From contig CAZDIP010000002.1 in the NCBI GenBank assembly GCA_964505635.1, positions 165,843-229,842 of the forward strand: a DNA stretch of 64,000 nucleotides. The letters run 5' to 3'. Below the pieces are notes generated by a model. The model saw only the letters and a program-made list of their open reading frames with translations. It searched no databases and was not told where the DNA came from. The stretch's first letter is position 1. Every line of letters begins with the position of its first letter. The translations under genes were made by a program, and so were the position numbers. This document shows positions 16,024-50,182 of this stretch, piece by piece. Source of the DNA: an uncultured Candidatus Saccharibacteria bacterium (GTDB lineage: Bacteria; Patescibacteriota; Doudnabacteria; UBA920).

Positions 16024-17370
16024 TTATATATACAACTTATCCAGAATTAAATCCACCTCCTGCTTAAACTCAACCTTTTCGCTTAATAGATTCTCTATTT
16101 TTTCTACGGCGTGCATAACCGTTGTGTGATCCCTTCCTCCAAAAAAATCACCAATGGAAGGGAATGAATTATCCAGGTTTTTTCTTATCAAATACATTGC
16201 AATTTGCCTGGGTTTTACAAATTCTTTCCTGCGGGACTGTTTAATCAGGTCTTCAAGGGTTATGTTGTAGAATTCGGCGACTAGTTCCGCTATTTTTTTT
16301 GCGGAAGTTACCCTTTTTTTTATTCCTATTATGCTGGTTAAAATGTTTTTTGCTTCTTCTAAAAACAACCCACGGTTGTGCATTTGTTGGTATACTGCAA
16401 GTTTATTTAGGGCACCTTCTAACTCCCTAACATTGTTTTGTATATTCTCTGCAAGGTAAAAAAGAATTGGTTCTTCTATGGCTACCCCGCGTTTTTCCAT
16501 TTTGTTTCGGAGTATGGCCATGCGGGTTTCTAAGTCAGGGGCCTGTATATCTACCACCATTCCCCACTCAAAGCGTGAAATCAACCTTTGTTCAATAGCC
16601 GGTATTTCTTTTGGCGGTCGGTCGGAGGTAATAATTATTTGCTTGCCTTTATCTCTTAGTTCATTAAAAGTATGAAAAAATTCTTCTTGGGTTCCTTCTT
16701 TGCCGGCAATAAACTGAATGTCGTCAATTAGCAACATATCAGCGTCGCGGTATTTTTTTTTGAATTCGTCGGTACGTTTTTGTTTAATAGAATCAATATA
16801 ATCGTTAGTGAATTTTTCACTGCTTACGTATAAAATTCTACTCCTGGGATTTGAACTTAGTAATTTATGACCCACGCCCTGCATTAAATGGGTTTTTCCC
16901 AAACCAACACCCCCGTAAATAAATAATGGGTTGTACTGGCTGCCTGGGTTTTTTGCCACAGCGATACTGGCCGCGTACGCCAGCTCGTTATTTTTTCCAG
17001 TAATAAAGGTTTCAATAGTGTATTTGGGATTCAGCCCCAGGATTGGGATTGTTTGATTTTCTGTTTGTTCAAAGTTTTTTCCAACCGCCCTGCTGTTATT
17101 ATTGGTTTTTTGGGTAATTTGGGAAACATTCCCTATTTGGTAGCGCACTTCTTTTATTTCCGGTGCAATTGTTTTTAGAGCTTTAAGTATTTCTGCCTGA
17201 TATTTGCTACTAATCCAGTTTTTATGGAACATGTCAGGGAGGTGAATTGTAATATAGTCGTCGCCTTTCTCCGAAATCCCTGTATTTTTAAACCAAGTGT
17301 TAAAATTAGCCTTGCTTAGTGTAATTTCTAAATGTCCCAATATGGCTTGCCAGAGCTGCTGGTTGTTCAT
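16024..17370 (-). CDS. dnaA: chromosomal replication initiator DnaA
   Basis: GGVGLGKTHLMQ Walker A, C-terminal DnaA-box binding HTH. Confidence 0.93.
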   Translation of the reverse strand: MNNQQLWQAILGHLEITLSKANFNTWFKNTGISEKGDDYITIHLPDMFHKNWISSKYQAEILKALKTIAPEIKEVRYQIGNVSQITQKTNNNSRAVGKNFEQTENQTIPILGLNPKYTIETFITGKNNELAYAASIAVAKNPGSQYNPLFIYGGVGLGKTHLMQGVGHKLLSSNPRSRILYVSSEKFTNDYIDSIKQKRTDEFKKKYRDADMLLIDDIQFIAGKEGTQEEFFHTFNELRDKGKQIIITSDRPPKEIPAIEQRLISRFEWGMVVDIQAPDLETRMAILRNKMEKRGVAIEEPILFYLAENIQNNVRELEGALNKLAVYQQMHNRGLFLEEAKNILTSIIGIKKRVTSAKKIAELVAEFYNITLEDLIKQSRRKEFVKPRQIAMYLIRKNLDNSFPSIGDFFGGRDHTTVMHAVEKIENLLSEKVEFKQEVDLILDKLYI

Positions 17371-25748: not shown

Positions 25749-26471
25749 TTATACGTTTGCTGAAGTATGCACCGCAATTACGTCTTCGTCATTCTCTAAT
25801 TCAGCAAATAAATTATCAACTTTAGGTTTTTGATCTTCAGTTAAATTAACACCCTGCGAAGACTCTTTTATTATATCCGCCCGTGCGATTTTTGCGCCAG
25901 CTGTTGTTAAAGATTGTTTTATTTTACCCAAGTCTAAAGGCTTGGTGTAAACTTCTAAGCCTTCTGCCGATTCGCGCACATCTTCGGCGCCGGCGTCGAT
26001 GGCGGCTAATTCAATTTGTGATAAATCATCGCGGTCGCGCTCCACTAAAATTTGCCCCTTAGTGCTAAACTGCCAAGCAACAGAGTTTTGCGCGCCTATG
26101 CTTCCGCCGTGTTTGGCAAATATGTGGCGGATGTTTTGAAAAGTCCTGTTAGAATTGTCGGTCGCACATTCTACCAAAAACGCAGTGCCAAAAGGCCCAT
26201 AGCCCTCGTAAACCACCTCCTGTATTTGCCCTGCCCCACTTCCTGTTGATGCCTTAATCGCCCTTTCAATGTTTTCGTTAGGCATGCCCTGGTCTTTGGC
26301 ATATTCAATCGCGCCTTTTAATTTAAAGTTAACAGAGGGGTCGCCGCTGCCTCCGCCTTCTTTTACTGCTATGCTGATTTTTTTCCCAAGCTTGGAATAC
26401 AAAAGTCCGCGCTTTTGGTCAAGTGTGCCTTTGGTTCTTTTAATTTGTGACCATTTACTGTGCCCGCTCAT
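25749..26471 (-). CDS. yebC: YebC/PmpR family DNA-binding regulator
   Basis: MSGHSKWSQIKRTKG N-terminus. Confidence 0.9.
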   Translation of the reverse strand: MSGHSKWSQIKRTKGTLDQKRGLLYSKLGKKISIAVKEGGGSGDPSVNFKLKGAIEYAKDQGMPNENIERAIKASTGSGAGQIQEVVYEGYGPFGTAFLVECATDNSNRTFQNIRHIFAKHGGSIGAQNSVAWQFSTKGQILVERDRDDLSQIELAAIDAGAEDVRESAEGLEVYTKPLDLGKIKQSLTTAGAKIARADIIKESSQGVNLTEDQKPKVDNLFAELENDEDVIAVHTSANV

Positions 26472-26740
26472 AGATTTTTATAAATGTCGTGCTTGCCAAT
26501 GCTAATAAACACTACTCCCCCGTTGGGTTTTCGGTAGAAAATTATTCTGTAGCTTAAATTTATTGATATTGAAAAAAGCCCAGCCAGTTTACCTTTTAAG
26601 CTGTGTAGCCCAAGCGAAGGATGGAGAGGGTTTTCCCGGAAAACTTTTTCTTTCGTAATTGTCAGCTCTTGAATATCCCTGGGTATTTTTTTCAACAGTT
26701 TTACAAACTCCAGTGAGTAGGATATTTCTTTTATAATCAT
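26468..26740 (-). CDS. type II toxin-antitoxin toxin, RelE/ParE superfamily
   Basis: 90 aa, immediately downstream of a 75-aa RHH-like partner, separated by 2 nt. Confidence 0.55.
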   Translation of the reverse strand: MIIKEISYSLEFVKLLKKIPRDIQELTITKEKVFRENPLHPSLGLHSLKGKLAGLFSISINLSYRIIFYRKPNGGVVFISIGKHDIYKNL

Positions 26741-28688: not shown

Positions 28689-29054
28689 TCAACTTTTATG
28701 GTTATTAATCGCTGTATTTTTAGATGAAGTCATTATGGCGGTTAGCTCATCAGCTTCTTTTAGTAGTTTATTAATTACTTCTGGTTTTATTATGTTTGAG
28801 GCCACTAAAAGTTCGAGCCAGTCAAGGGTTTCGTCGCATTCTTCTACTACTGTCCCAATTTTGTGGATAAAGTCTTTTGCGGATTTACAGCGACATGCGG
28901 CGCGGTAGTTTGTATAGACCGAAGTCCCGGATCTTAATAATTGGTCTCCGATTCTTCTTCCAACATTGCCGCAATTCGCTTCTAAATATTTATACAATTT
29001 TACTGTTTCCACTGCGAATTCTTTTGTTCTTTGTTTTAAGTCTGATTTTTCCAT
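28689..29054 (-). CDS. four-helix-bundle protein (23S rRNA IVS protein family), second copy
   Basis: 121 aa with the same family pattern as 25354-25716. Confidence 0.5.
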   Translation of the reverse strand: MEKSDLKQRTKEFAVETVKLYKYLEANCGNVGRRIGDQLLRSGTSVYTNYRAACRCKSAKDFIHKIGTVVEECDETLDWLELLVASNIIKPEVINKLLKEADELTAIMTSSKNTAINNHKS

Positions 29055-29690: not shown

Positions 29691-30680
29691 CTATAGCGTG
29701 GTTATTGGTCTGCTTTGAGTAATGTAGAATTTTCCTTTTTCATAAGCCCATTCTATGTCTTGGGGGTTTTTGTAATGTTGCTCAATTTTTTTACATACCT
29801 TGGCCAATTCTACAATTTGTTTGCCGCTAAGTTTTTGTTTTCCGCCAATTTTTTCCGCCAATTTTTTTTGTATATTTCCTTTTGAAGTTTTAGCAATCAT
29901 CATACTCTGCCGGGAAATATTTATGTCTAAAATGGAAAAATCTTTTTTGTGCACAATATAAGTGTCAGGTGTAATAAGTCCTCCAACAATAGCCTCGCCA
30001 AGTCCAAAGCCTGCTTCTATAACCATCTGGTCATAATCTTTGGTAACCGGATGTACGGTAAAGCTAATTCCGCTTACTTCGCTTTGGACCATTTTTTGCA
30101 CCACCACTGCCACGGAAACTTTGGTTTTATGAAGTTTTTTTTCAAACCTGTAAAATATAGCCCTTGGGGTAAACAAGGAAGACCAACATTTCTTTACCTG
30201 TTTTATTACATCTTTTTCTGTAACGTTTAAATAGGTTTCCAATTCCCCTGCCCAGGAAGCGACCTTGCTGTCCTCTGCCGTGGCGCTGGATCTGACCGCC
30301 ACTAGTTGTAGTAATCCCCTCCTAGAATAGGAGGGGTGTCTCGCTAAACGGGACGGGGTGGTATTAAATAATTTATCATAAGCTTCCATAATCCCTTTTT
30401 GTAAATCTTTAGGCATATCAACGTCTAAAATCATCCTTCTTATTTCCGCACTAGCTTTGTCTACTGAATTTATGTCTTTATGGTTTACTTTTTTTTGTAC
30501 GGATTCTATTTCTGCGTCTAAGTCTGTTTCTTTTAAAAATTGGTCAAAGGCTGAGGCCAGCACAACAAAGCCCGGCGGCACGGACATTCCTGCCCCTGTC
30601 ATCTCTCCCAAAGAAGCGCCTTTACCACCTGCAATCGCGACATCTTTTTTTGAAAGTTGTTTAAAAGTTTTTATAAACAT
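29691..30680 (-). CDS. stand-alone PEP-utilising-enzyme ATP-grasp module (PPDK_N domain only)
   Basis: KDVAIAGGKGASLGEM and VAVRSSATAED motifs of the PpsA/RPH ATP-binding domain; no His-swivel or PEP/pyruvate domain. Confidence 0.8.
   Translation of the reverse strand: MFIKTFKQLSKKDVAIAGGKGASLGEMTGAGMSVPPGFVVLASAFDQFLKETDLDAEIESVQKKVNHKDINSVDKASAEIRRMILDVDMPKDLQKGIMEAYDKLFNTTPSRLARHPSYSRRGLLQLVAVRSSATAEDSKVASWAGELETYLNVTEKDVIKQVKKCWSSLFTPRAIFYRFEKKLHKTKVSVAVVVQKMVQSEVSGISFTVHPVTKDYDQMVIEAGFGLGEAIVGGLITPDTYIVHKKDFSILDINISRQSMMIAKTSKGNIQKKLAEKIGGKQKLSGKQIVELAKVCKKIEQHYKNPQDIEWAYEKGKFYITQSRPITTL
30299..30368. repeat. GC-rich palindromic in-frame insertion inside ATP-grasp gene
   Basis: CCCCTCCT-agaat-AGGAGGGG inverted repeat (30316-30336) encoding extra residues before the conserved VAVRSSATAED. 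Confidence 0.4.
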
Positions 30681-30685
30681 AAAAA

Positions 30686-31747
30686 TTATTTTATTTTTGT
30701 AATAATCCCCTTGTTTGCATCTACCTCAATTATATCACCATCTTTTAGTACTTTGGTGGCTATTTTAGTGCCAATTATGCAAGGTTTTTTTATTTCACGA
30801 GCAGTGATAGCTGCATGTGACAAAATTCCTCCTGCGTCAGTTACAAATGCGGCGGCCTTATGCATAATAGGTAAAAATTCAGGCCGCGTAGCGCCAGTAA
30901 CTAAAATATCGCCAACTTTAAAATCCGTAGCCTTTTTTGGATTTATAACAATTTTAACTTTGCCAACAATTTTACCCGGATAAGCTACGCTGCCTTTCAA
31001 TTCTTTTAAGTTTTGTTTTGAGACTAATAGGCTTTCAACTTTTTTGATGGTTTGATCAGTATAAAATTCATAGCCAACTTTAGTGGCTAATAATATTGCT
31101 TTTTTATCTCGCTTATTTAATTCTTCTATTTTTGGTAATTTGGCAGTGTTAAAATATTCAGCTAACTCTTCTTTTGTTAAGCACAATAATAAATTATATT
31201 TATATTTTATTTTTTTTCCCAGAAGCTTAGTAAAACTAATCATAAAATCCTCGGTTCGATTTAAGACAGGTTCGGCTGCTAATCTGGCAGATTGCAAGGC
31301 AGGCAAATATTTTTTTAGTAAATTAGGCTGTAAATAATCAACAACATATTTTATATTAATGTGTGGATGGTAATAAGCCAGAAGTTTTTTCCAGAAAGTA
31401 AAATAAAGCTTGAGCGTAGGTTTTGAAGATTCGTGCGCATTTATAAATTTTAAAAAGCTTTTGGCTTGTTGTTTTAAGCGGCGGGCTATAACCAACGCAT
31501 GCCGTGGATTTTTTTCTATCTGATTGGCTAAATATTTACCCAAACGGTCGCGGTCAGTTTGGCGCATCCAGCCGGCGCTTCTACCATGAGAAATAAAAAT
31601 TATTGATTGGCTTTTAAAAGGATGCCCACCAAAAATTAATTCTTTGGTGTACTGATTTATAAAATGAGTGCTGGTTAAAAAACTCCAACGTCCGTCGTAA
31701 ATTTTAACCCAGTCATTGTGAATAAAAGATTTTAGATTAAATTTCAT
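30686..31747 (-). CDS. PEP-utilising-enzyme mobile (phospho-His swivel) domain protein, paralog A (short N-terminal region)
   Basis: C-terminal [22 protein letters not shown] with conserved catalytic His. Confidence 0.75.
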
Positions 31748-33186
31748 TTTATTTTCCTAACAATCCCTTTATCTGCATCTATCTGAATTATATCACCATC
31801 TTTAAACACCTTGGTAGCAAACTTGGTACCGACAATACAGGGTTTATGGAGTTCACGCGAGACGATGGCCGCATGACAGGTAATACCTCCAATGTCTGTT
31901 ACTATTGCTTTAGAGAGTTTCATAATCGGCAAATAATTGGGGTCGGTCATGCGAGTTATAAGTATTTCCCCGGGTTTAAAATTAACAGAATCCTTACTGT
32001 CCAGAATTATTTTTACCCTTCCCTTAACCCGACCTGGATAAGCTAATTCGCCCGTTAGCCTCTTGGTGGATTTGATTTTTGGCAAAAGTTTGATGATTTT
32101 AGAAAATTCGCTTTCTGCTTTTTCGCCAACATACTCATTTATTTTAGGCCTTTTAAATACAACAAGCACTCTCTTATACTTGTTGTTAATTTTTTCTATA
32201 TCTAATTTTGACTTAAATAGCCCAGACACCTTATTTGGAGGAATAACCCTCATTTGATTTAACGAGAGGTTTAAGCGAATACCGATCTCAGTCATTATTT
32301 TATCCGCTAAAAAATAGGTTAAAGAATGTGCGTCTACTCGTTTTGCTTTTAAATCTACAAGCATTCTCAGCATAATTGAAAATTTTTTTTGAGACCCTTC
32401 AAATTTGGTAAGAATATTTGCTTGCTTAATCAGCAAATTTTTTTTGCTGTTAAACCTAACGCCAATATTTTTTAGGATCCTAGGATTTTTTGCGGCAATA
32501 ATAAAATTTGTTTTAAAATATTCTTCGCTTAAAGCCGGTCCCGCCCACCCGTACGTCATCCAGCTGTATTTGACGCAGTGTTTTTTTAATATATTTTTTT
32601 GTTCTGCTATAAATTTCCCGTATTTCTTAAAAAGAGTTAAAAGATCTAAATCTTGTTGTTCAGCTCGGGAGCTGTAATGGCTTGTTGTGAGAACAGTGAA
32701 TACGGAGTTTAATTTTGAAATAGAATACCTGGTAAGTATTATGTCTTTAACATAATCTGTTAAAAAAGAATTTGATAATTCAAGAATGTTTGGAATTTGA
32801 CCTCGTCTCCATAAAGTTTCATCTAACTCAAATAGTTCTTTATGGTATTCTAAAAGCCCTTTATTATCAAGCTTAGAAAAATTAATTTTTGTCCATTTTT
32901 TTTCTAAATCAAGAATTTTATCTGCCGCAATATTTATTTCATTCAATACATTTAATAATAAGCCCGGGTTTGTCTTAATTTTAGTTAAAAATTTTTTACC
33001 TGCTTGTGTATACTCTTGTCTGTTAAAATAGTATGCTTCGGTGCCTTGAGAAAAGGTCGCCGCTATAGTATTTACCTCGCATCCGTATTTTTTGAAATCA
33101 TAAAGCCAGGCCTTAAGAGGAGCCAGTCCTTGGTACCAATAAAACCCCGGCCACTCCCAAGCAAATAATTCGGATGATTTTTTCAT
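31744..33186 (-). CDS. substrate-binding-like region + phospho-His swivel domain protein, paralog B
   Basis: C-terminal [22 protein letters not shown]; N-terminal region homologous to paralogs C and D ([12 protein letters not shown]). Confidence 0.75.
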
Positions 33187-33187
33187 A

Positions 33188-34687
33188 TTATATTTTCCTC
33201 ACGATTCCCTTATTTGCATCCACCTCCACCATATCCCCGTCTTTCAGTACCTTGGTCGCGAATTTGGTGCCAATTATGCAGGGCTTTTTCATTTCTCTGG
33301 CTACAATAGCCGCGTGGGAAGTTATGCCTCCCTGGTCGGTTACAAAGGCGTTGGCTCTATACATGGCAGGCAAAAAGTCGGGATTGGTGGAAAGGGCAAC
33401 TAAAATATCCCCATGCTGGACTTTGTTTAGGTCTTTGGCAGTAAAAACCAATTTGGCTTTACCAATGGCTTTGCCTAAAAAAGCAGCTTGGCCATGAAGT
33501 TCGGAAGCATCTGATACTTCTTCAGGCAGTACCAAACGCCTTAGTACCTTTTTTGCTGTTTTTATAGTATAAAATTTGCGGCTTTTTGGTGTTATTACTT
33601 CCACCACATATTTTGTCCGCCCTAAAATAGTTTTTTTATTAACTTTTTTTCCACTTAATATTTTTAAAATTTCTTCGCGGGTACAGTAACATAAAAATTT
33701 AGGCGGCAATTTTAAACGCGTAGAAAGTTCAGAAAAAATAATATCTGAAATATAGGAAAAATAATGCCTTATACCTACACGGTAGATTTTAAGACAGCTA
33801 AATTGCCTGGCTGCTTCAAATAATATTTTTTCTTTGGCAATAAATTTTAACTGCCTGGTTAATTTTATTTGGTCTGCTTTTAGTTTTTTTAGGAAGTTGC
33901 CATGGTCGTTGAGTTGTTTTTTTAAGCCGGCTTTATTTGTAAAGATTTTTTCCAGGCGAATAATAAAATCTTTGGGTTCCACAATCGGGCCTTGGTAGCC
34001 ATAATGAAGCCAAATATATTTTTGGGTATGGTTTGCAAAATCCGGGGAATTTATTGCCGCATCTAGCCGCTTGTATTTAAAAGCTATTTCCAGTAAATCT
34101 TTTTGTTCCTGCCAAAACAGGGTTTCATCAGCCGGTGTAATTAGGGTATTTAAAATGTTTTGAATATTGTTTTCGGCAACATCGTGTACCCGCAAGGCTG
34201 AAATTAATTTTTTGGTTAAATAATTATGTTCAAAGTCGCTTAAAACAGGAATACTGCCTATTGCGTTTAATTCTAAATATGGCTTCCACATGGCTTTTAA
34301 CCAAGCTTTAATTTGCGCCAAACTTTTTTGCTCAAGGTTTGCGTGTTCAATTTTTTGGCACAATGCCATTATTTCTTCGCCATTTTTTATATGTTCGGAA
34401 TTAAGTTTTTTTAATGACAGTTGTCCGTTTTCCAAACGTTTTATGCAAGCCATGCCCATAGTATTCCAATTAGCCAAATTAAAACCGTATCTCAGTGATT
34501 CGTTTTTTATTTCCATTAATCCCGCGCTAAAACCTACCCCTAAATATTTTTTTACATGCGGTAAAAACATAAAAGCATCTGAAACCATTGAGATGGCAAA
34601 ATAATTGACGTTATTTTCTTCTACCAAAATTTTAATTGATTGTGGTTCCATAAATTTAAATCTTTTTAACAGTCCCCTTATTAGCAT
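33188..34687 (-). CDS. substrate-binding-like region + phospho-His swivel domain protein, paralog C
   Basis: C-terminal [22 protein letters not shown]; likely true start at MEPQSIK (34651), overlapping the stop of paralog D. Confidence 0.75.
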
Positions 34688-36170
34688 CCACTTCCACCAT
34701 ATCCCCGTCCTTAAAAACTTTGGTAGCGATTTTAGTGCCTATAACACAAGGAATACCTAGTTCACGGCTAACAATAGCCGCGTGGGAAGTTATACCTCCC
34801 TGCTCGGTTACAATTGCCGCAGCCTTTTTCATTGCTGGGACAATGTCCGGGTCAGTCGCCACGGAAACTAAAATATCGCCTTTGTTAAACTTGGCCATAT
34901 CTTTGGCTCGAAAAATCTTTTTCACCACGCCTTTGGCAAAACCCGGCTGCGCGGTTTGCCCGACTACTTCGGTAATGCCCTCGGCCGAAAACTTTTTAAA
35001 AGTTTTAATTATATTTTTAGCTTTCTTGCCAACATACAAAGTTTCAAAGTCTTTTTCCGTGTACAGTATGCATTCCGTCATACACTGGTTTATAAATTTT
35101 TTGTTGATTTTGCCATATATCAAAGCCTGTTTAACTTGATCCATAAGCATAAATTGTACCTCAAAGCGATTTAATTTAAGCCTCTTGGCAATTTCAGGTA
35201 AAAGCGTTTTATGCATTAAGTACAAATGTAAAAGCTGGGCATGGCGGCGGTAAAGCTTGGTAATGGCAAAGCCTCGCGCTGTCTTAAACTGTGTTTGGTA
35301 AAGGCGGCCGATTTTTAATTTTTTTATTAAAACTTTTTGCTGCGCATGCGCTGCTTTAAGCTGGCTTTTTTCTTTTTGTAAAATTTTATCTCCGCCTACG
35401 CCTGTTTCAAAAATTTCCAGCATCTCATTAAAGTAATGCTTTTCAGAAAAAGGTTTGACATTACCCGCGTAAATATAACCCAAGTGACCCCATTTTTGGC
35501 TGTGTGCTAAAAGTGTTATTTTAAGTTCTGTCGAAAGCTTTTTTAGTTTTATATCTTTGAAAAATATATTGTAAATTTTTAAAAATTCTTCCCGCTCTTT
35601 AGCGACAATGGTTTTTTGCGTGGGCGTAGTGAGAGTAATAAAAGCATTTTCTGCTTCTTCCTTACTTGCGCACACACCATACAAATAGCTTTTTAGTTTT
35701 TTGGTAAAATTGTTATGGAACATGTCTACAGCCACCGGCAGCCAGCCATAAGTGTAAAGCTTGGTGTGTATTTGATCCTGCTTTTTATAGATTTCCCAGA
35801 GTTGCCTGTTAGAAAGTTTGGTTAAATCTTTGGCCGCGATACTTTTTGAATAAATTATAAGTTTGTCCGACCATTTAACAATGTTGTCGTTTAATTCTTT
35901 TCCTAGAGATGGTTTTTTAAATAAGGCTTTTAGGATATTCTCGGCCACTTCCAAACTGTCGCGTTCGCCAAAGTAAAAATGCATTAAAAATTTTTTATAA
36001 TGCGTTACCACCCGCTTGTAATTTTTTATAAATTTATAGCTGGTGTTGCTGCAAAAGCAGGACATAGGCACCTGAAAGAAAAAGACGTCGGAGTCCGGAA
36101 TTTGTTCAGCAAGCATCCATTCGTCCGGATGCTGTAAAAATTTAGGAGTAACTTTTTTCATAGTCGTCAT
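34656..36170 (-). CDS. substrate-binding-like region + phospho-His swivel domain protein, paralog D
   Basis: C-terminal [22 protein letters not shown]; first gene of the operon. Confidence 0.75.
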   Translation of the reverse strand: MTTMKKVTPKFLQHPDEWMLAEQIPDSDVFFFQVPMSCFCSNTSYKFIKNYKRVVTHYKKFLMHFYFGERDSLEVAENILKALFKKPSLGKELNDNIVKWSDKLIIYSKSIAAKDLTKLSNRQLWEIYKKQDQIHTKLYTYGWLPVAVDMFHNNFTKKLKSYLYGVCASKEEAENAFITLTTPTQKTIVAKEREEFLKIYNIFFKDIKLKKLSTELKITLLAHSQKWGHLGYIYAGNVKPFSEKHYFNEMLEIFETGVGGDKILQKEKSQLKAAHAQQKVLIKKLKIGRLYQTQFKTARGFAITKLYRRHAQLLHLYLMHKTLLPEIAKRLKLNRFEVQFMLMDQVKQALIYGKINKKFINQCMTECILYTEKDFETLYVGKKAKNIIKTFKKFSAEGITEVVGQTAQPGFAKGVVKKIFRAKDMAKFNKGDILVSVATDPDIVPAMKKAAAIVTEQGGITSHAAIVSRELGIPCVIGTKIATKVFKDGDMVEVDANKGTVKKI

Positions 36171-36395
36171 TGCGATCCCGATAAGGTCGGGAGAAACAAT
36201 CTATAAAAAGTAATTGATTTTTACTGCCTTAAACTTACCTTAAATATAGCAAATATCTATAAAAAACGTGAGTCTAAAAACCCATTCCGAGCGAAGAGAG
36301 GAATCCCTTTATGTAACAATTCCCTAATATTTTAAAGCGATACTTCACTTCATTCTGTATGGTTACTCGGGGTTTGGGATTTATACCAAAAACTA

Positions 36396-36424
36396 TTGAC
36401 AAAAAGTATAGAAAATGATATAAT
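36396..36424 (+). promoter_or_regulatory. near-consensus sigma70 promoter
   Basis: TTGACA - 17 nt - TATAAT; ~270 nt upstream of the next CDS. Confidence 0.45.
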
Positions 36425-36698
36425 ATATTGTTATATTTTGTGGCTGTTGGTGCCAATTTTGGCGCTTTTACTCAAATATAACCGGTGGTTCTTTAACAAT
36501 TGGTTGTTGGTTGAGCAAATTACAGCCATCTAAATCACATATGACTTCTTAGGTCTATTGAATAGAAAATTAGAAAGCATCTTCTCCACAAGGTCGAAGA
36601 GTATTTTTGTTTTTTCGGACACAGCGAATAGTGGTTAAATTTTAACCCCTGCCTGCTATGTCCGAATTCTGTTGGAAATTTCTGTTAGGAGAAAGACA

Positions 36699-37307
36699 AT
36701 GAAACGTTTGTACTATTTCCGCCATTCCATCAAGGACGGAGAGGCGAGCACGCTCGGGCCCAAGGGGCTTGAACTCGCCAATTTGGTTGGCGCGTGGGTT
36801 TTCTGCCACGACCATGAGTTTGACCCCGCTCTGGTGTTCACCGGTCCTCTTGTCAGAACGGTTCAAACCGCCTACGCTTTCATGCAAGGCGTGTCCAAGA
36901 GGTGCGGTGGCTCGATGCCTATACTCATGCCTGCCATTCCCGAAATCGGCGACGACGCACTCTTTGCCGAAATGGTGAAGCCTGCTGAACAGTTCCGCGC
37001 CCTGGCAGGCGAGATGGGCAATTACCGCGCATTACTGACATGCCACGACGGCGACGTTGTGGACTTCTGGATTGTGCGCGCCATGGAGGGGCTCAAAAAG
37101 ATGGTCGGTGCGATGGAGGAAGTGAACTGCGCAGTGGTGTTTGGTCATTCTCCGATCATTGAATTGACATTGGCCGGCATCCTCGGAAAACAGCTCCCCG
37201 AGGAACTTCTGACTTTTTCGGAAATGGAAGGTGTGCTGTTGACCGTTGACGGCGACGGCAAAGTCAACGTCATAGTCCACAAGATCTCCATGCCCGCGCA
37301 GGCCTAA
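36699..37307 (+). CDS. histidine phosphatase superfamily (phosphoglycerate-mutase-like) protein, GC-rich
   Basis: LYYFRHSIKDGEAS (RHG-type motif) and FGHSP; RBS aggagaaagacaATG; GC content much higher than flanks. Confidence 0.5.
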   Translation: MKRLYYFRHSIKDGEASTLGPKGLELANLVGAWVFCHDHEFDPALVFTGPLVRTVQTAYAFMQGVSKRCGGSMPILMPAIPEIGDDALFAEMVKPAEQFRALAGEMGNYRALLTCHDGDVVDFWIVRAMEGLKKMVGAMEEVNCAVVFGHSPIIELTLAGILGKQLPEELLTFSEMEGVLLTVDGDGKVNVIVHKISMPAQA

Positions 37308-37340
37308 CCACAACCACAACAACCAACCCACCGCAAATTC

Positions 37341-37391
37341 GCGGGCAGAAGGGCGTCCATCCTAGGACGCTTTCACTTCTGCCCGCTTTTC
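37341..37391 (+). terminator. rho-independent terminator
   Basis: gcgggcagaag...cttctgcccgc 11-bp stem with nested ggcgtcc/ggacgc hairpin followed by tttt. Confidence 0.55.
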
Positions 37392-37459
37392 ATTTGCCTT
37401 TATATTTTTACTTTTATAACTTCTGCACTCTATATCTGAAATTTAATGCTATAATACCT

Positions 37460-37493
37460 GTACCCGAAATTAACGGCCGTTAAAAAGAGGTAC
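37460..37493. promoter_or_regulatory. imperfect palindrome GTACCCGAAATTAACGGCCGTTAAAAAGAGGTAC overlapping promoter/RBS of the PaaX-like gene
   Basis: core TAACGGCCGTTA shared with the 34-bp perfect palindrome at 38053-38086; extended -10 (TGcTATAAT) at 37447-37455. Confidence 0.45.
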
Positions 37494-38024
37494 ATGGGAA
37501 AAAGTAAAAAAGAACTGACTTTAACCAGCAAGTTTTTATCGCATTTATATTTAGCGCACGACTTTTTGCTGCCTTTTGTATCCATCCCCGAATTTAAAAA
37601 ACGGGCCCTGTTTGGAAGTTACGGCAGTTACCGTTCGTCTGTTTACAAGCTTTATAAGCGGGGTTGGATAAAGTTTGTAAATAAAGACGCGCAAAGATTT
37701 ATCAAGTTAACCGGCAAAGGACAGTTGCGAGCTTTATTAGCTAAAGCAAAACACCCCCTGCCACAAAAGTGGGACGGCAAATGGCGGATGATTATTTTTG
37801 ACATCCCCGAAGAGGCTAAGGAATTAAGAAACCAGCTCAGGAATTTGTTGAAAGAAAATGATTTTTTCAAACTCCAGGCCAGTGTGTATGTAAATCCATA
37901 TTCCTTAAATCGGGAAGCCATTAAATATTTACAGGAGACAAAGCTTTTGCCGTATATAAGAATTTTAAAAATTGAGGAAGTTGATAATGACTCGGATTTA
38001 AAAAAACATTTTAACCTTGTTTAA
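37494..38024 (+). CDS. PaaX-like transcriptional regulator (short form: wHTH + PaaX_C-like region)
   Basis: KWDGKWRMIIFDIPEEAKELRNQLRNLLKENDFFKLQASVYV matches the W..G.W..V.FDIPE...R..LR..L...GF..L..SV pattern of the PaaX C-terminal region; N-terminal winged-helix-like segment. Confidence 0.5.
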   Translation: MGKSKKELTLTSKFLSHLYLAHDFLLPFVSIPEFKKRALFGSYGSYRSSVYKLYKRGWIKFVNKDAQRFIKLTGKGQLRALLAKAKHPLPQKWDGKWRMIIFDIPEEAKELRNQLRNLLKENDFFKLQASVYVNPYSLNREAIKYLQETKLLPYIRILKIEEVDNDSDLKKHFNLV

Positions 38025-38158: not shown

Positions 38159-38235
38159 GGGCGTGTAGCTCAGCTGGTTAGAGCACGAAGCTTATACCTT
38201 CGGGGTCCTAGGTTCAAATCCTAGCACGCCCACCA
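38159..38235 (+). tRNA. tRNA-Ile (anticodon UAU)
   Basis: cloverleaf: acceptor gggcgtg/cacgccc, anticodon loop cuUAUac, T-loop ttcaaat, encoded CCA. Confidence 0.8.
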
Positions 38236-49488: not shown

Positions 49489-49715
49489 TTTGTGGAGCGC
49501 CTAACCCCGCATAACTAGAAAACTCGTATGCGGGGCGTGGCGGGAAGTTTCCAATTCCCTTTGACAAATGAAAAAACTTTCACAAAATTGTGAAAGTTTT
49601 TTCATTGGAGCGGGTAATCCACCTACGCTAAAGCTTCGGCGGACAGGCGGGAAAAGTTCTCATTCCCACTGACAAAAAGAAAATGCCCGACCGTTGAGGT
49701 CAGGCATATTCTTTT
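49489..49715. repeat. two ~110-bp tandem repeat units, each beginning with a copy of the tRNA-Gly 3' end (TGGAGCG[GG/CC]TAA) and ending in a terminator-like hairpin
   Basis: unit1 49492-49600, unit2 49606-49715; shared GGCGGGAA(A)AGTT.C.ATTCCC..TGACAAA core; unit3 is the intact tRNA-Gly. Confidence 0.5.
49679..49715 (-). terminator. terminator hairpin downstream of tRNA-Gly
   Basis: atgcctgacc-tcaac-ggtcgggcat stem (with a G-U) followed by uuuuc on the minus strand. Confidence 0.45.
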
Positions 49716-49788
49716 GGAGCGGGTAACGGGAATCGAACCCGTGTCATTTGATTGGCAACCAAATGTACTACCATTGTACTATACCCGC
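49715..49788 (-). tRNA. tRNA-Gly (anticodon GCC)
   Basis: acceptor gcgggta/tacccgc, anticodon loop uuGCCaa, T-loop ttcgatt, CCA. Confidence 0.85.

Positions 49789-50105: not shown

Positions 50106-50182
<77 letters not shown>

Follow-up and report, generated by a model that had tools for sequence, protein, structure and literature searches.

Five adjoining genes of an uncultured Candidatus Saccharibacteria bacterium raise the question of whether a single ATP-grasp domain can serve several phosphate-carrying partners that are encoded apart from it. The genes lie at positions 29691–36170 of a 64000-nucleotide stretch of contig CAZDIP010000002.1 (the window), as five tightly packed open reading frames (ORFs), all co-directional on the minus strand with −4 to +5 nt between neighbours, and some 6.5 kb of coding sequence in the window is given over to this one enzyme system. 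We consider it probable, at roughly 60%, that these genes make up a two-component small-molecule dikinase, a split homologue of rifampin phosphotransferase (RPH), in a one-to-many form, with one ATP-grasp subunit (E) and four acceptor/His-carrier subunits (A–D), each of the latter consisting of an N-terminal domain (N-domain) and a C-terminal ‘swivel’ domain with the catalytic histidine residue. An earlier note on this DNA had placed one ATP-grasp gene and four His-swivel genes here, and the ORFs and their Pfam domains agree with it; the motifs that it quoted (GGKGASLGEM, VAVRSSATAED, GGILSH, GGITCH and, twice, GGITSH) were all found.

One ATP-grasp gene and four carrier genes

E (positions 29691–30680; 329 aa), the proposed shared ATP-charging component, has PPDK_N as its sole Pfam domain (E-value 2e-99, profile positions 3–311 of 328). 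Alignments with the ATP-grasp domains of an archaeal phosphoenolpyruvate (PEP) synthase (PDB code 8A8E; 4e-75) and of RPH-Lm (5HV6; 2e-58) cover all of E, and a search of the PDB also matched it with the crystal structure of HpeI (9GOJ; 4e-51), the separate ATP-grasp subunit of the characterized two-component dikinase HpeHI. In RPH, mutagenesis has established that Lys22, Arg117 and Thr136 position ATP, with Glu297 also in the site (PMC4844700), and all four of these ATP-site residues are kept in E, where Lys20, Arg130, Thr149 and Glu310 align with them. In addition, the C-terminus of E, QSRPITTL, coincides with the exact end of the crystallized RPH ATP-grasp construct (5HV6), i.e. with a domain boundary, and E carries the ATP-grasp alone, stopping before any swivel or PEP/pyruvate domain, as had been noted earlier. 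E is thus what a two-component dikinase would be expected to have, namely a separate ATP-grasp protein homologous to the nucleotide-binding domain of RPH and PEP synthase with its ATP-site residues kept.

The four carrier genes lie upstream of E. D (positions 34656–36170; 504 aa) has an N-domain of ~395 residues followed by the C-terminal swivel, with the codon for His463 at 34782–34784. C (33188–34651; 487 aa; His446 codon at 33314–33316) is 36% identical with D over 422 aa; its mechanical ORF reaches 34687, giving 499 aa, but we favour the ATG at 34651 because its orthologues in loci L002 and L007 have 486–488 aa. B (31744–33186; 480 aa) has 28–29% full-length identity with C and D and carries its His438 (codon at 31873–31875) in the motif GGITCH, whereas A (30686–31747; 353 aa) is of a short type with a reduced N-domain before the swivel, and has its His311 (codon at 30815–30817) in GGILSH. 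B, C and D are therefore mutually homologous but diverged (28–36% identity from end to end), in agreement with the earlier description. PF00391, the PEP-utilisers mobile domain, is the sole Pfam domain in each of A–D (8e-23 to 2e-27) and lies at the very C-terminus, and the catalytic histidine residue (A311, B438, C446 and D463) stands in the T/SxxGGxxxH pattern, with the context TEQGGITSH seen.

All five ORFs are intact and full-length orthologues of each are conserved across many genomes (for example, B in L057; 2e-90), the nearest named relatives being Candidatus Doudnabacteria and other Patescibacteria; judged from these comparisons, the E-values rule out chance similarity. A Logan assembly of SRR16481186, made independently, also contains E and D next to the same neighbours, indicating that the architecture is real and no assembly artefact. 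A tblastn search of the window with the five proteins returned the swivels of A–D and the ATP-grasp of E and no further copy, downstream of E or elsewhere, and Pfam detected no PEP/pyruvate-binding TIM-barrel domain (PF02896) in any of A–E, for which the NCBIfam PEP synthase models gave scores of 91–347 against cut-offs of 598–740, placing the proteins outside the PEP synthase and pyruvate phosphate dikinase (PPDK) families. We noticed no secretion or membrane features in the proteins, though no search was aimed at them, and the dikinase proteins should be cytoplasmic.

What, then, do the carriers resemble beyond their swivels? An AlphaFold2 model of D, built on 33 homologues, has a predicted local distance difference test (pLDDT) score of 92.5, and in a Foldseek search its six best matches were all RPH-Lm (E-value 3e-13, template modelling score up to 0.61). 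RPH was the only full-length structural match, at 16% identity in the structural alignment, as has likewise been reported for HpeH, of which RPH is the sole full-length match with 20% identity over 473 aa (PMC12167813). In its predicted structure, D has a fold like that of the rifampin-binding domain of RPH, followed by the C-terminal swivel; together with the ATP site and boundary of E, this supports the split RPH-like dikinase that the earlier note had suspected, including the structural relationship of the N-terminal region. By BLAST, the similarity of A to B, C and D is confined to the last ~180 residues of A, and profile–profile alignment of A with D covers the full length with a deletion of ~150 residues in A (probability 100, E-value 3e-59), from which we judge A to be a reduced version of the D fold.

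A phmmer alignment anchored on the swivel pairs residues 265–400 of D with 623–760 of RPH and, with modest alignment confidence, sets Lys305, Leu306 and Arg309 of D opposite Arg666, Glu667 and Lys670, which are residues of the second phosphotransfer site of RPH (PMC4844700). Lys305 and Arg308 are invariant in the D orthologues, and Arg308 is nearly invariant across the whole superfamily, in which a K..RK consensus persists despite a mean identity of 21%. The N-domain also has a conserved aromatic-rich motif, H..KY.W..Y.Y.G.

Carrier arrays in related genomes

Relatives of D were sought by scanning one genome per species, which yielded 549. The best 80 loci belong mainly to lineages of the Candidate Phyla Radiation (CPR; Doudna-, Magasanik-, Falkow-, Kerfeld-, Komeili-, Buchanan-, Nealson- and Portnoybacteria and Parcubacteria) and to archaea of the Diapherotrites, Parvarchaeota, Aenigmarchaeota, Nanoarchaeota and Nanohaloarchaeota assemblage (DPANN; here Micrarchaeota, Woesearchaeota and Nanoarchaeota), with some records labelled ‘uncultured Gammaproteobacteria’ or ‘Methanosarcinales’ (third-party bins, with labels as deposited). 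A large part of microbial diversity belongs to the CPR and DPANN, whose genomes are reduced and whose lineage-specific proteins mostly lack a known function. From 1.84 billion proteins, the N-domain of D retrieved 518 cluster representatives (at 50% identity), a lower bound given the single-sequence query.

The split architecture and multiple copies described in the earlier note recur in these genomes. The 41 loci that span 15 kb or more carry a median of 4 swivel-only genes, with the largest number, 12, in L084; 29 loci have two or more such genes and 21 have four or more, and as many as 12 paralogues lie within a single 22-kb locus. A stand-alone ATP-grasp gene (311–354 aa) is present in 18 of the 41, and never more than one per locus. 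Across 82 loci, every stand-alone grasp gene (25/25) is on the strand of the nearest carrier gene, and 12 of them are within 100 nt of it. These genes resemble E far more (1e-104 to 1e-156) than true PEP synthase (PpsA) or PPDK proteins do (5e-12 to 6e-76), and in some related loci they coexist with a genuine PpsA or PPDK.

Natural fusions of the types GRASP-(N-swivel)x2, GRASP-(N-swivel)x3 and (N-swivel)x2-GRASP were also found. Since one grasp domain is here joined to two or three modules, these proteins provide ‘Rosetta-stone’ evidence that one ATP-grasp works with several modules, and the lack of any related locus with more than one stand-alone grasp gene argues in the same direction, so that synteny and fusions both back the earlier proposal of an ATP-grasp shared by several carriers. 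One further protein (P0081) has GRASP-N-swivel, with its domains in the order of RPH. Three proteins of ~775 aa (P0284, P0302 and P0321) have the N-swivel first and the ATP-grasp at the C-terminus, and another of 1538 aa (P0345) is N-swivel-GRASP with an added HD phosphohydrolase domain. The N-swivel-GRASP order, with the ATP-grasp C-terminal to the His domain, resembles that of glucan water dikinase.

The earlier note had also described the array as diversifying, and this does not hold. The best N-domain identity between paralogues within a locus has a median of 25%, with no pair above 60%, and for 94% of the proteins there is a closer relative in another genome, which rules out recent tandem duplication. 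Clustering placed 180 paralogues from 36 loci in 178 locus-wise distinct clusters, and 235 proteins fell into more than 100 clusters at 35% identity. On these comparisons the paralogues are old, stable subfamilies and not the product of recent diversification. The swivel domains are ~55% identical across subfamilies, as against ~21–25% for the N-domains, and the catalytic histidine residue is kept in all 226 swivel domains examined from related loci, bar one with masked residues.

Some D-like carriers are longer, at ~600–630 aa, by virtue of an N-terminal extension of ~90 residues (L061, 9746–11554; L066, 9713–11614; L055, 7265–9139; and proteins P0298, P0367 and P0383). The extension repeatedly gives sub-threshold winged helix-turn-helix (HTH) matches (HTH_20, MarR_2, HTH_IclR and HVO_A0114), and in L061 and L066 the gene adjoins the ATP-grasp gene. 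PfkB kinase and phosphoribosyltransferase genes adjoin a few arrays, an adjacency too weak to argue for a role in nucleoside salvage.

Phosphohydrolases and other neighbours

The earlier account of the operon was sound for its five genes and missed a sixth, divergent one, which proves to be of a recurrent kind. Beyond D, on the plus strand, lies a gene of the histidine phosphatase superfamily (positions 36699–37307; 202 aa from the ATG at 36699, within an ORF from a TTG at 36672), which is also called at 202 aa in the Logan assembly. Its match to Pfam His_Phos_1 (1.8e-4) is exactly at the cut-off and the RH...R...H core is present; its sole NCBIfam match is to SixA, faint and far below the cut-off.

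Genes for phosphohydrolases cluster at the related arrays. With 34% expected, this being the share of non-array sequence that lies within 1.5 kb of an array gene, 30 of 31 histidine-phosphatase-like genes (P=2e-13), all 15 haloacid dehalogenase (HAD)-like genes (P=9e-8) and all four HD-domain genes (P=0.013) fell within that distance, although the test is somewhat biased by the fact that four of the six query families (the histidine phosphatase variants HP3–HP5 and the HAD family) were first spotted as recurrent neighbours of arrays. In 32 of 82 loci a phosphohydrolase gene is beside the array. Three unrelated phosphohydrolase folds at the arrays, taken with the HD fusion, argue that phosphate removal belongs to the system, and the phosphatase of the window is probably its accessory phosphohydrolase. 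The Hpe and Acv operons also contain a phosphatase, and HpeD, which is NagD-like (HAD), dephosphorylates after the carboxylation step (PMC9618137; PMC12624787). The HAD-like hydrolase of the arrays is a protein of ~200 aa, found at positions 17040–17645 of L031 and in 14 other loci, in which motif I reads DFHG and not DxDx; its gene often abuts an array gene or overlaps it by 0–12 nt.

Between D and the phosphatase gene, the intergenic DNA (36171–36698) has promoter-like sequence motifs in both directions, namely TTGACA-17-TATAAT without a mismatch and with TG on the plus strand (36396–36424) and two minus-strand sites with 9 of 12 matches (36456–36427 and 36434–36405). A riboswitch or leader RNA upstream of D, which might have named a ligand, found no support: the region had no Rfam match and an unremarkable fold z-score of −1.8.

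The GC content is 0.43 in 36001–38000, the stretch of the phosphatase gene, compared with 0.35–0.37 in 30001–36000, that of the dikinase array. Beyond the phosphatase gene are an ORF of 176 aa (37494–38024, plus strand) that matches the PaaX central Cas2-like domain (4e-21) and, less strongly, CRISPR_Cas2, and a tRNA-Ile gene (38159–38235, plus strand) whose TAT anticodon is genomically encoded. Downstream of the operon, on the minus strand, are a 23S_rRNA_IVP four-helix-bundle protein (28689–29054; 5e-17) and a weak YafQ/RelE-like toxin ORF (26468–26740). Elsewhere, a group I intron (Rfam RF00028; 49823–50058, minus strand; 61.3 bits, E-value 4e-13) sits between tRNA-Gly(GCC) (49715–49788) and tRNA-Val(TAC) (50106–50182), and is either free-standing or inside an undetected gene. 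The window also holds an RsmI-like methylase and tRNAs, and ORFs which, judging their translations by eye, we take to be GyrA-like and YebC-like housekeeping genes.

Proposed function and comparison with known systems

By analogy with RPH, PpsAB and HpeHI, we infer the following course for the reaction. E would bind ATP, and the C-terminal swivel of A, B, C or D would dock on it transiently, in trans; the conserved swivel histidine would then attack the β-phosphate of ATP, giving a pyrophosphorylated histidine and releasing AMP, and the γ-phosphate would be hydrolysed off as inorganic phosphate (Pi) to leave His~P. The swivel would finally return to its own N-domain and hand the phosphate to the acceptor bound there, for a net reaction of ATP+X+H2O→AMP+Pi+X-P. 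As each N-domain is in a different and anciently diverged subfamily, each probably has its own acceptor, and the aromatic-rich motif, together with the known substrates of the relatives, suggests acceptors that are small molecules with a hydroxyl group, probably hydrophobic or aromatic ones. The phosphohydrolase encoded next to the operon would probably act either to strip off the phosphate once the product has undergone a further conversion, in the manner of HpeD in the Hpe pathway, or to reset the phosphohistidine. All the elements that this scheme calls for are present and conserved, and both gene order and fusions link one grasp domain with several carriers.

Several observations weigh against this interpretation. 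The N-domain had no significant match in the PDB, either with D residues 1–401 (phmmer) or with a profile of its 73-sequence family, and no sequence similarity was detectable to the rifampin-binding domain of RPH or to the PpsA/HpeH-type N-domain, so that homology of the acceptor domain rests on predicted structure. In the NCBIfam PRK08296 models, which we assumed to be a proxy for PpsA/HpeH-like membership (HpeH, CreH and PpsA being ~45% mutually identical), only the last 105–135 residues of the carriers match, with 52–95 bits against cut-offs of 578–730, which leaves them outside that family. In the swivel-anchored alignment, RPH Glu667 faces a leucine residue in D, and the ~150-residue gap in A takes in the region of the K..RK helix, so that A may not be the same type of kinase. 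The residue two before the catalytic histidine is threonine (PpsA-type) in 85% of swivels, as opposed to the methionine of RPH and HpeH. As many as 23 of the 41 long loci have neither a stand-alone grasp gene nor a fused grasp-plus-carrier gene within 10 kb, and charging there may be by another donor. Finally, if common docking on the local ATP-grasp made the swivels of one locus more alike than those of different loci, genome-specific co-adaptation might be seen, and the comparison gave no such difference (54.6% identity within loci compared with 54.5% between them, with the observed value reached in 201 of 500 permutations); we regard this null result as uninformative rather than contrary, because the swivel domains are so uniformly conserved.

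The best surviving alternative to a set of small-molecule kinases is that the carriers are regulatory or signalling phosphohistidine proteins, phosphorylated by E, whose phospho-state (reset by a SixA-like phosphatase) or ligand occupancy controls transcription or enzymes, with no small molecule phosphorylated at all. There are precedents for this in VadK, a PPDK-derived autophosphorylating histidine kinase that regulates the methylcitrate cycle (PMC13400623), and in PspR, an RPH-like protein whose central domain binds DNA (PMC10948481). The ~600-residue subclass with its HTH-like extension, encoded beside the grasp gene in L061 and L066, would also fit, as would the HTH_10 regulator genes that adjoin nine DPANN loci and the faint match of the window's phosphatase to SixA, a phosphohistidine phosphatase. 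However, that an HTH has been added in one subclass suggests that DNA binding is not a property of the N-domain as such, no extension of this kind is present in the window proteins, and between 4 and 12 such regulators would be unusual in genomes that we estimate to be probably ~1 Mb. Moreover, the place that probably corresponds to the RPH phosphotransfer site keeps its basic residues, and the arrays are accompanied by HAD and HD phosphohydrolases, families whose usual substrates are small phospho-esters; enzymes account for this K..RK conservation and for these partners better than regulators do, and we consider the regulatory explanation unlikely.

A special case of the kinase reading, which the earlier note had entertained, is an array for inactivating antibiotics or toxins in which each carrier deals with a different antibiotic of a host or competitor. 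RPH is indeed the only solved structure that matches a whole carrier, and a survey of the CPR resistome scored some CPR genes as rph-like (PMC8651080). The scores with the RPH models themselves tell against it, with 271 for E and 54–66 for A–D on NF041857 (cut-off 999) and 40–197 on NF000283 (cut-off 1700), or roughly 40–65 bits for A–D and 197–271 for E over both models, and the drug-binding region has no sequence similarity to the rifampin-binding domain. The subfamilies are ancient and stably inherited, with one copy of each per locus, and not patchy or mobile like resistance genes; there is no mobile-element context, and the characterized split relatives are catabolic and not resistance enzymes. 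An antibiotic role thus appears very improbable. None of the five proteins matched any PADLOC model, and a role in anti-phage defence was rejected on the same ground. Lastly, the possibility that E is the 5′ fragment of a decayed or mis-assembled ppsA or ppdK and the carriers pseudogene debris, raised by the closeness of E and the swivels to genuine PEP synthases, can be dismissed in view of the identical genes in an independent assembly, the end of E at an exact domain boundary, the lack of any further swivel or ATP-grasp copy in the window (tblastn) and of a PEP/pyruvate-binding domain in A–E (Pfam), the five intact ORFs with full-length orthologues in many genomes, and the coexistence elsewhere of the stand-alone grasp with intact PpsA or PPDK.

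If, as we propose, one ATP-grasp charges many acceptor modules, a reduced genome would have a modular route to many kinase specificities, and finding the molecules that the carriers phosphorylate would show what these organisms take from their hosts. A bolder and distinctly tentative extension, which we would rate as unlikely rather than likely, is that the CPR and DPANN share a ‘hub-and-spoke’ form of phosphoryl distribution, in which a single ATP-grasp hub charges ancient, interchangeable acceptor modules and, with the phosphatases, traps or activates many host-derived metabolites, with a repertoire that runs to over 100 sequence subfamilies and as many as 12 modules in one locus. Such a system would amount to a metabolic strategy that defines the lifestyle of ultra-small episymbionts, and each subfamily would represent a new kinase specificity.

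The earlier note took a multi-paralogue system acting in trans to be undescribed, which is only partly right. The split itself is established in PpsAB, CreHI, AcvAB and HpeHI, which are characterized two-component small-molecule dikinases and homologues of RPH (PMC12167813), from Thauera (the phenylphosphate synthase PpsAB), Corynebacterium, Sphingobium and Rhodococcus respectively; we found no description in the papers searched of multi-carrier arrays such as these in the CPR or DPANN. Like those systems, the operon has a separate ATP-grasp subunit and, as in the HpeHI type, a second subunit that combines an RPH-like substrate domain with a C-terminal swivel histidine; the chemistry of ATP→AMP+Pi+X-P is presumed to be the same, and a phosphatase is associated, as with HpeD and AcvF in the Hpe and Acv operons. 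Unlike the HpeHI type, in which the ratio is 1:1, one ATP-grasp gene here accompanies four carriers, a number that reaches 12 in other loci. The carriers are of ~350 or 480–510 aa, compared with 71 kDa for HpeH, their N-domains do not match the PRK08296 models outside the swivel, and the threonine two residues before the histidine is that of PEP synthase and not the methionine of HpeH. The arrays are hosted by CPR and DPANN organisms, and among the neighbouring genes that we looked at we noted none for a carboxylase or for the catabolism of aromatic compounds.

RPH (RPH-Lm; PDB codes 5FBS, 5FBT and 5HV1) has the same three modules, with the ATP-site residues kept, basic residues probably at the Arg666 and Lys670 positions, and its domain order reproduced in the fused relative P0081, but it is a single polypeptide, its Glu667 is probably not conserved here, its acceptor domain shows no relationship in sequence (16% identity when the structures are aligned) and its models score the window proteins far below cut-off. 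With PpsA and PPDK, the operon shares an ATP-grasp and swivels closest in sequence to archaeal PEP synthase and the motif GGxT[SC]H with threonine at the same position, whereas it has no PEP/pyruvate TIM barrel, its swivel is C-terminal and not central, and its acceptor domain is of a different fold. The prodiginine ligases PigC, RedH and HapC and glucan water dikinase likewise apply the logic of ATP-grasp and swivel histidine to acceptors other than pyruvate, but are single polypeptides with other acceptor domains, in place of the paralogue arrays seen here. VadK (Rv1127c) and PspR (Haloferax) are regulators drawn from the same superfamily, and recall the winged-HTH-like extension of one related subclass; they are, however, single proteins, in contrast with the arrays, and the window proteins have no such extension. 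What sets the present system apart from all of these is its one-to-many stoichiometry, a distinct N-domain superfamily in two size classes, swivel and ATP-grasp sequences like those of PEP synthase, the systematic association with phosphohydrolases and an occurrence chiefly in the CPR and DPANN; if our reading is true, the subfamily of two-component dikinases extends well beyond aromatic catabolism.

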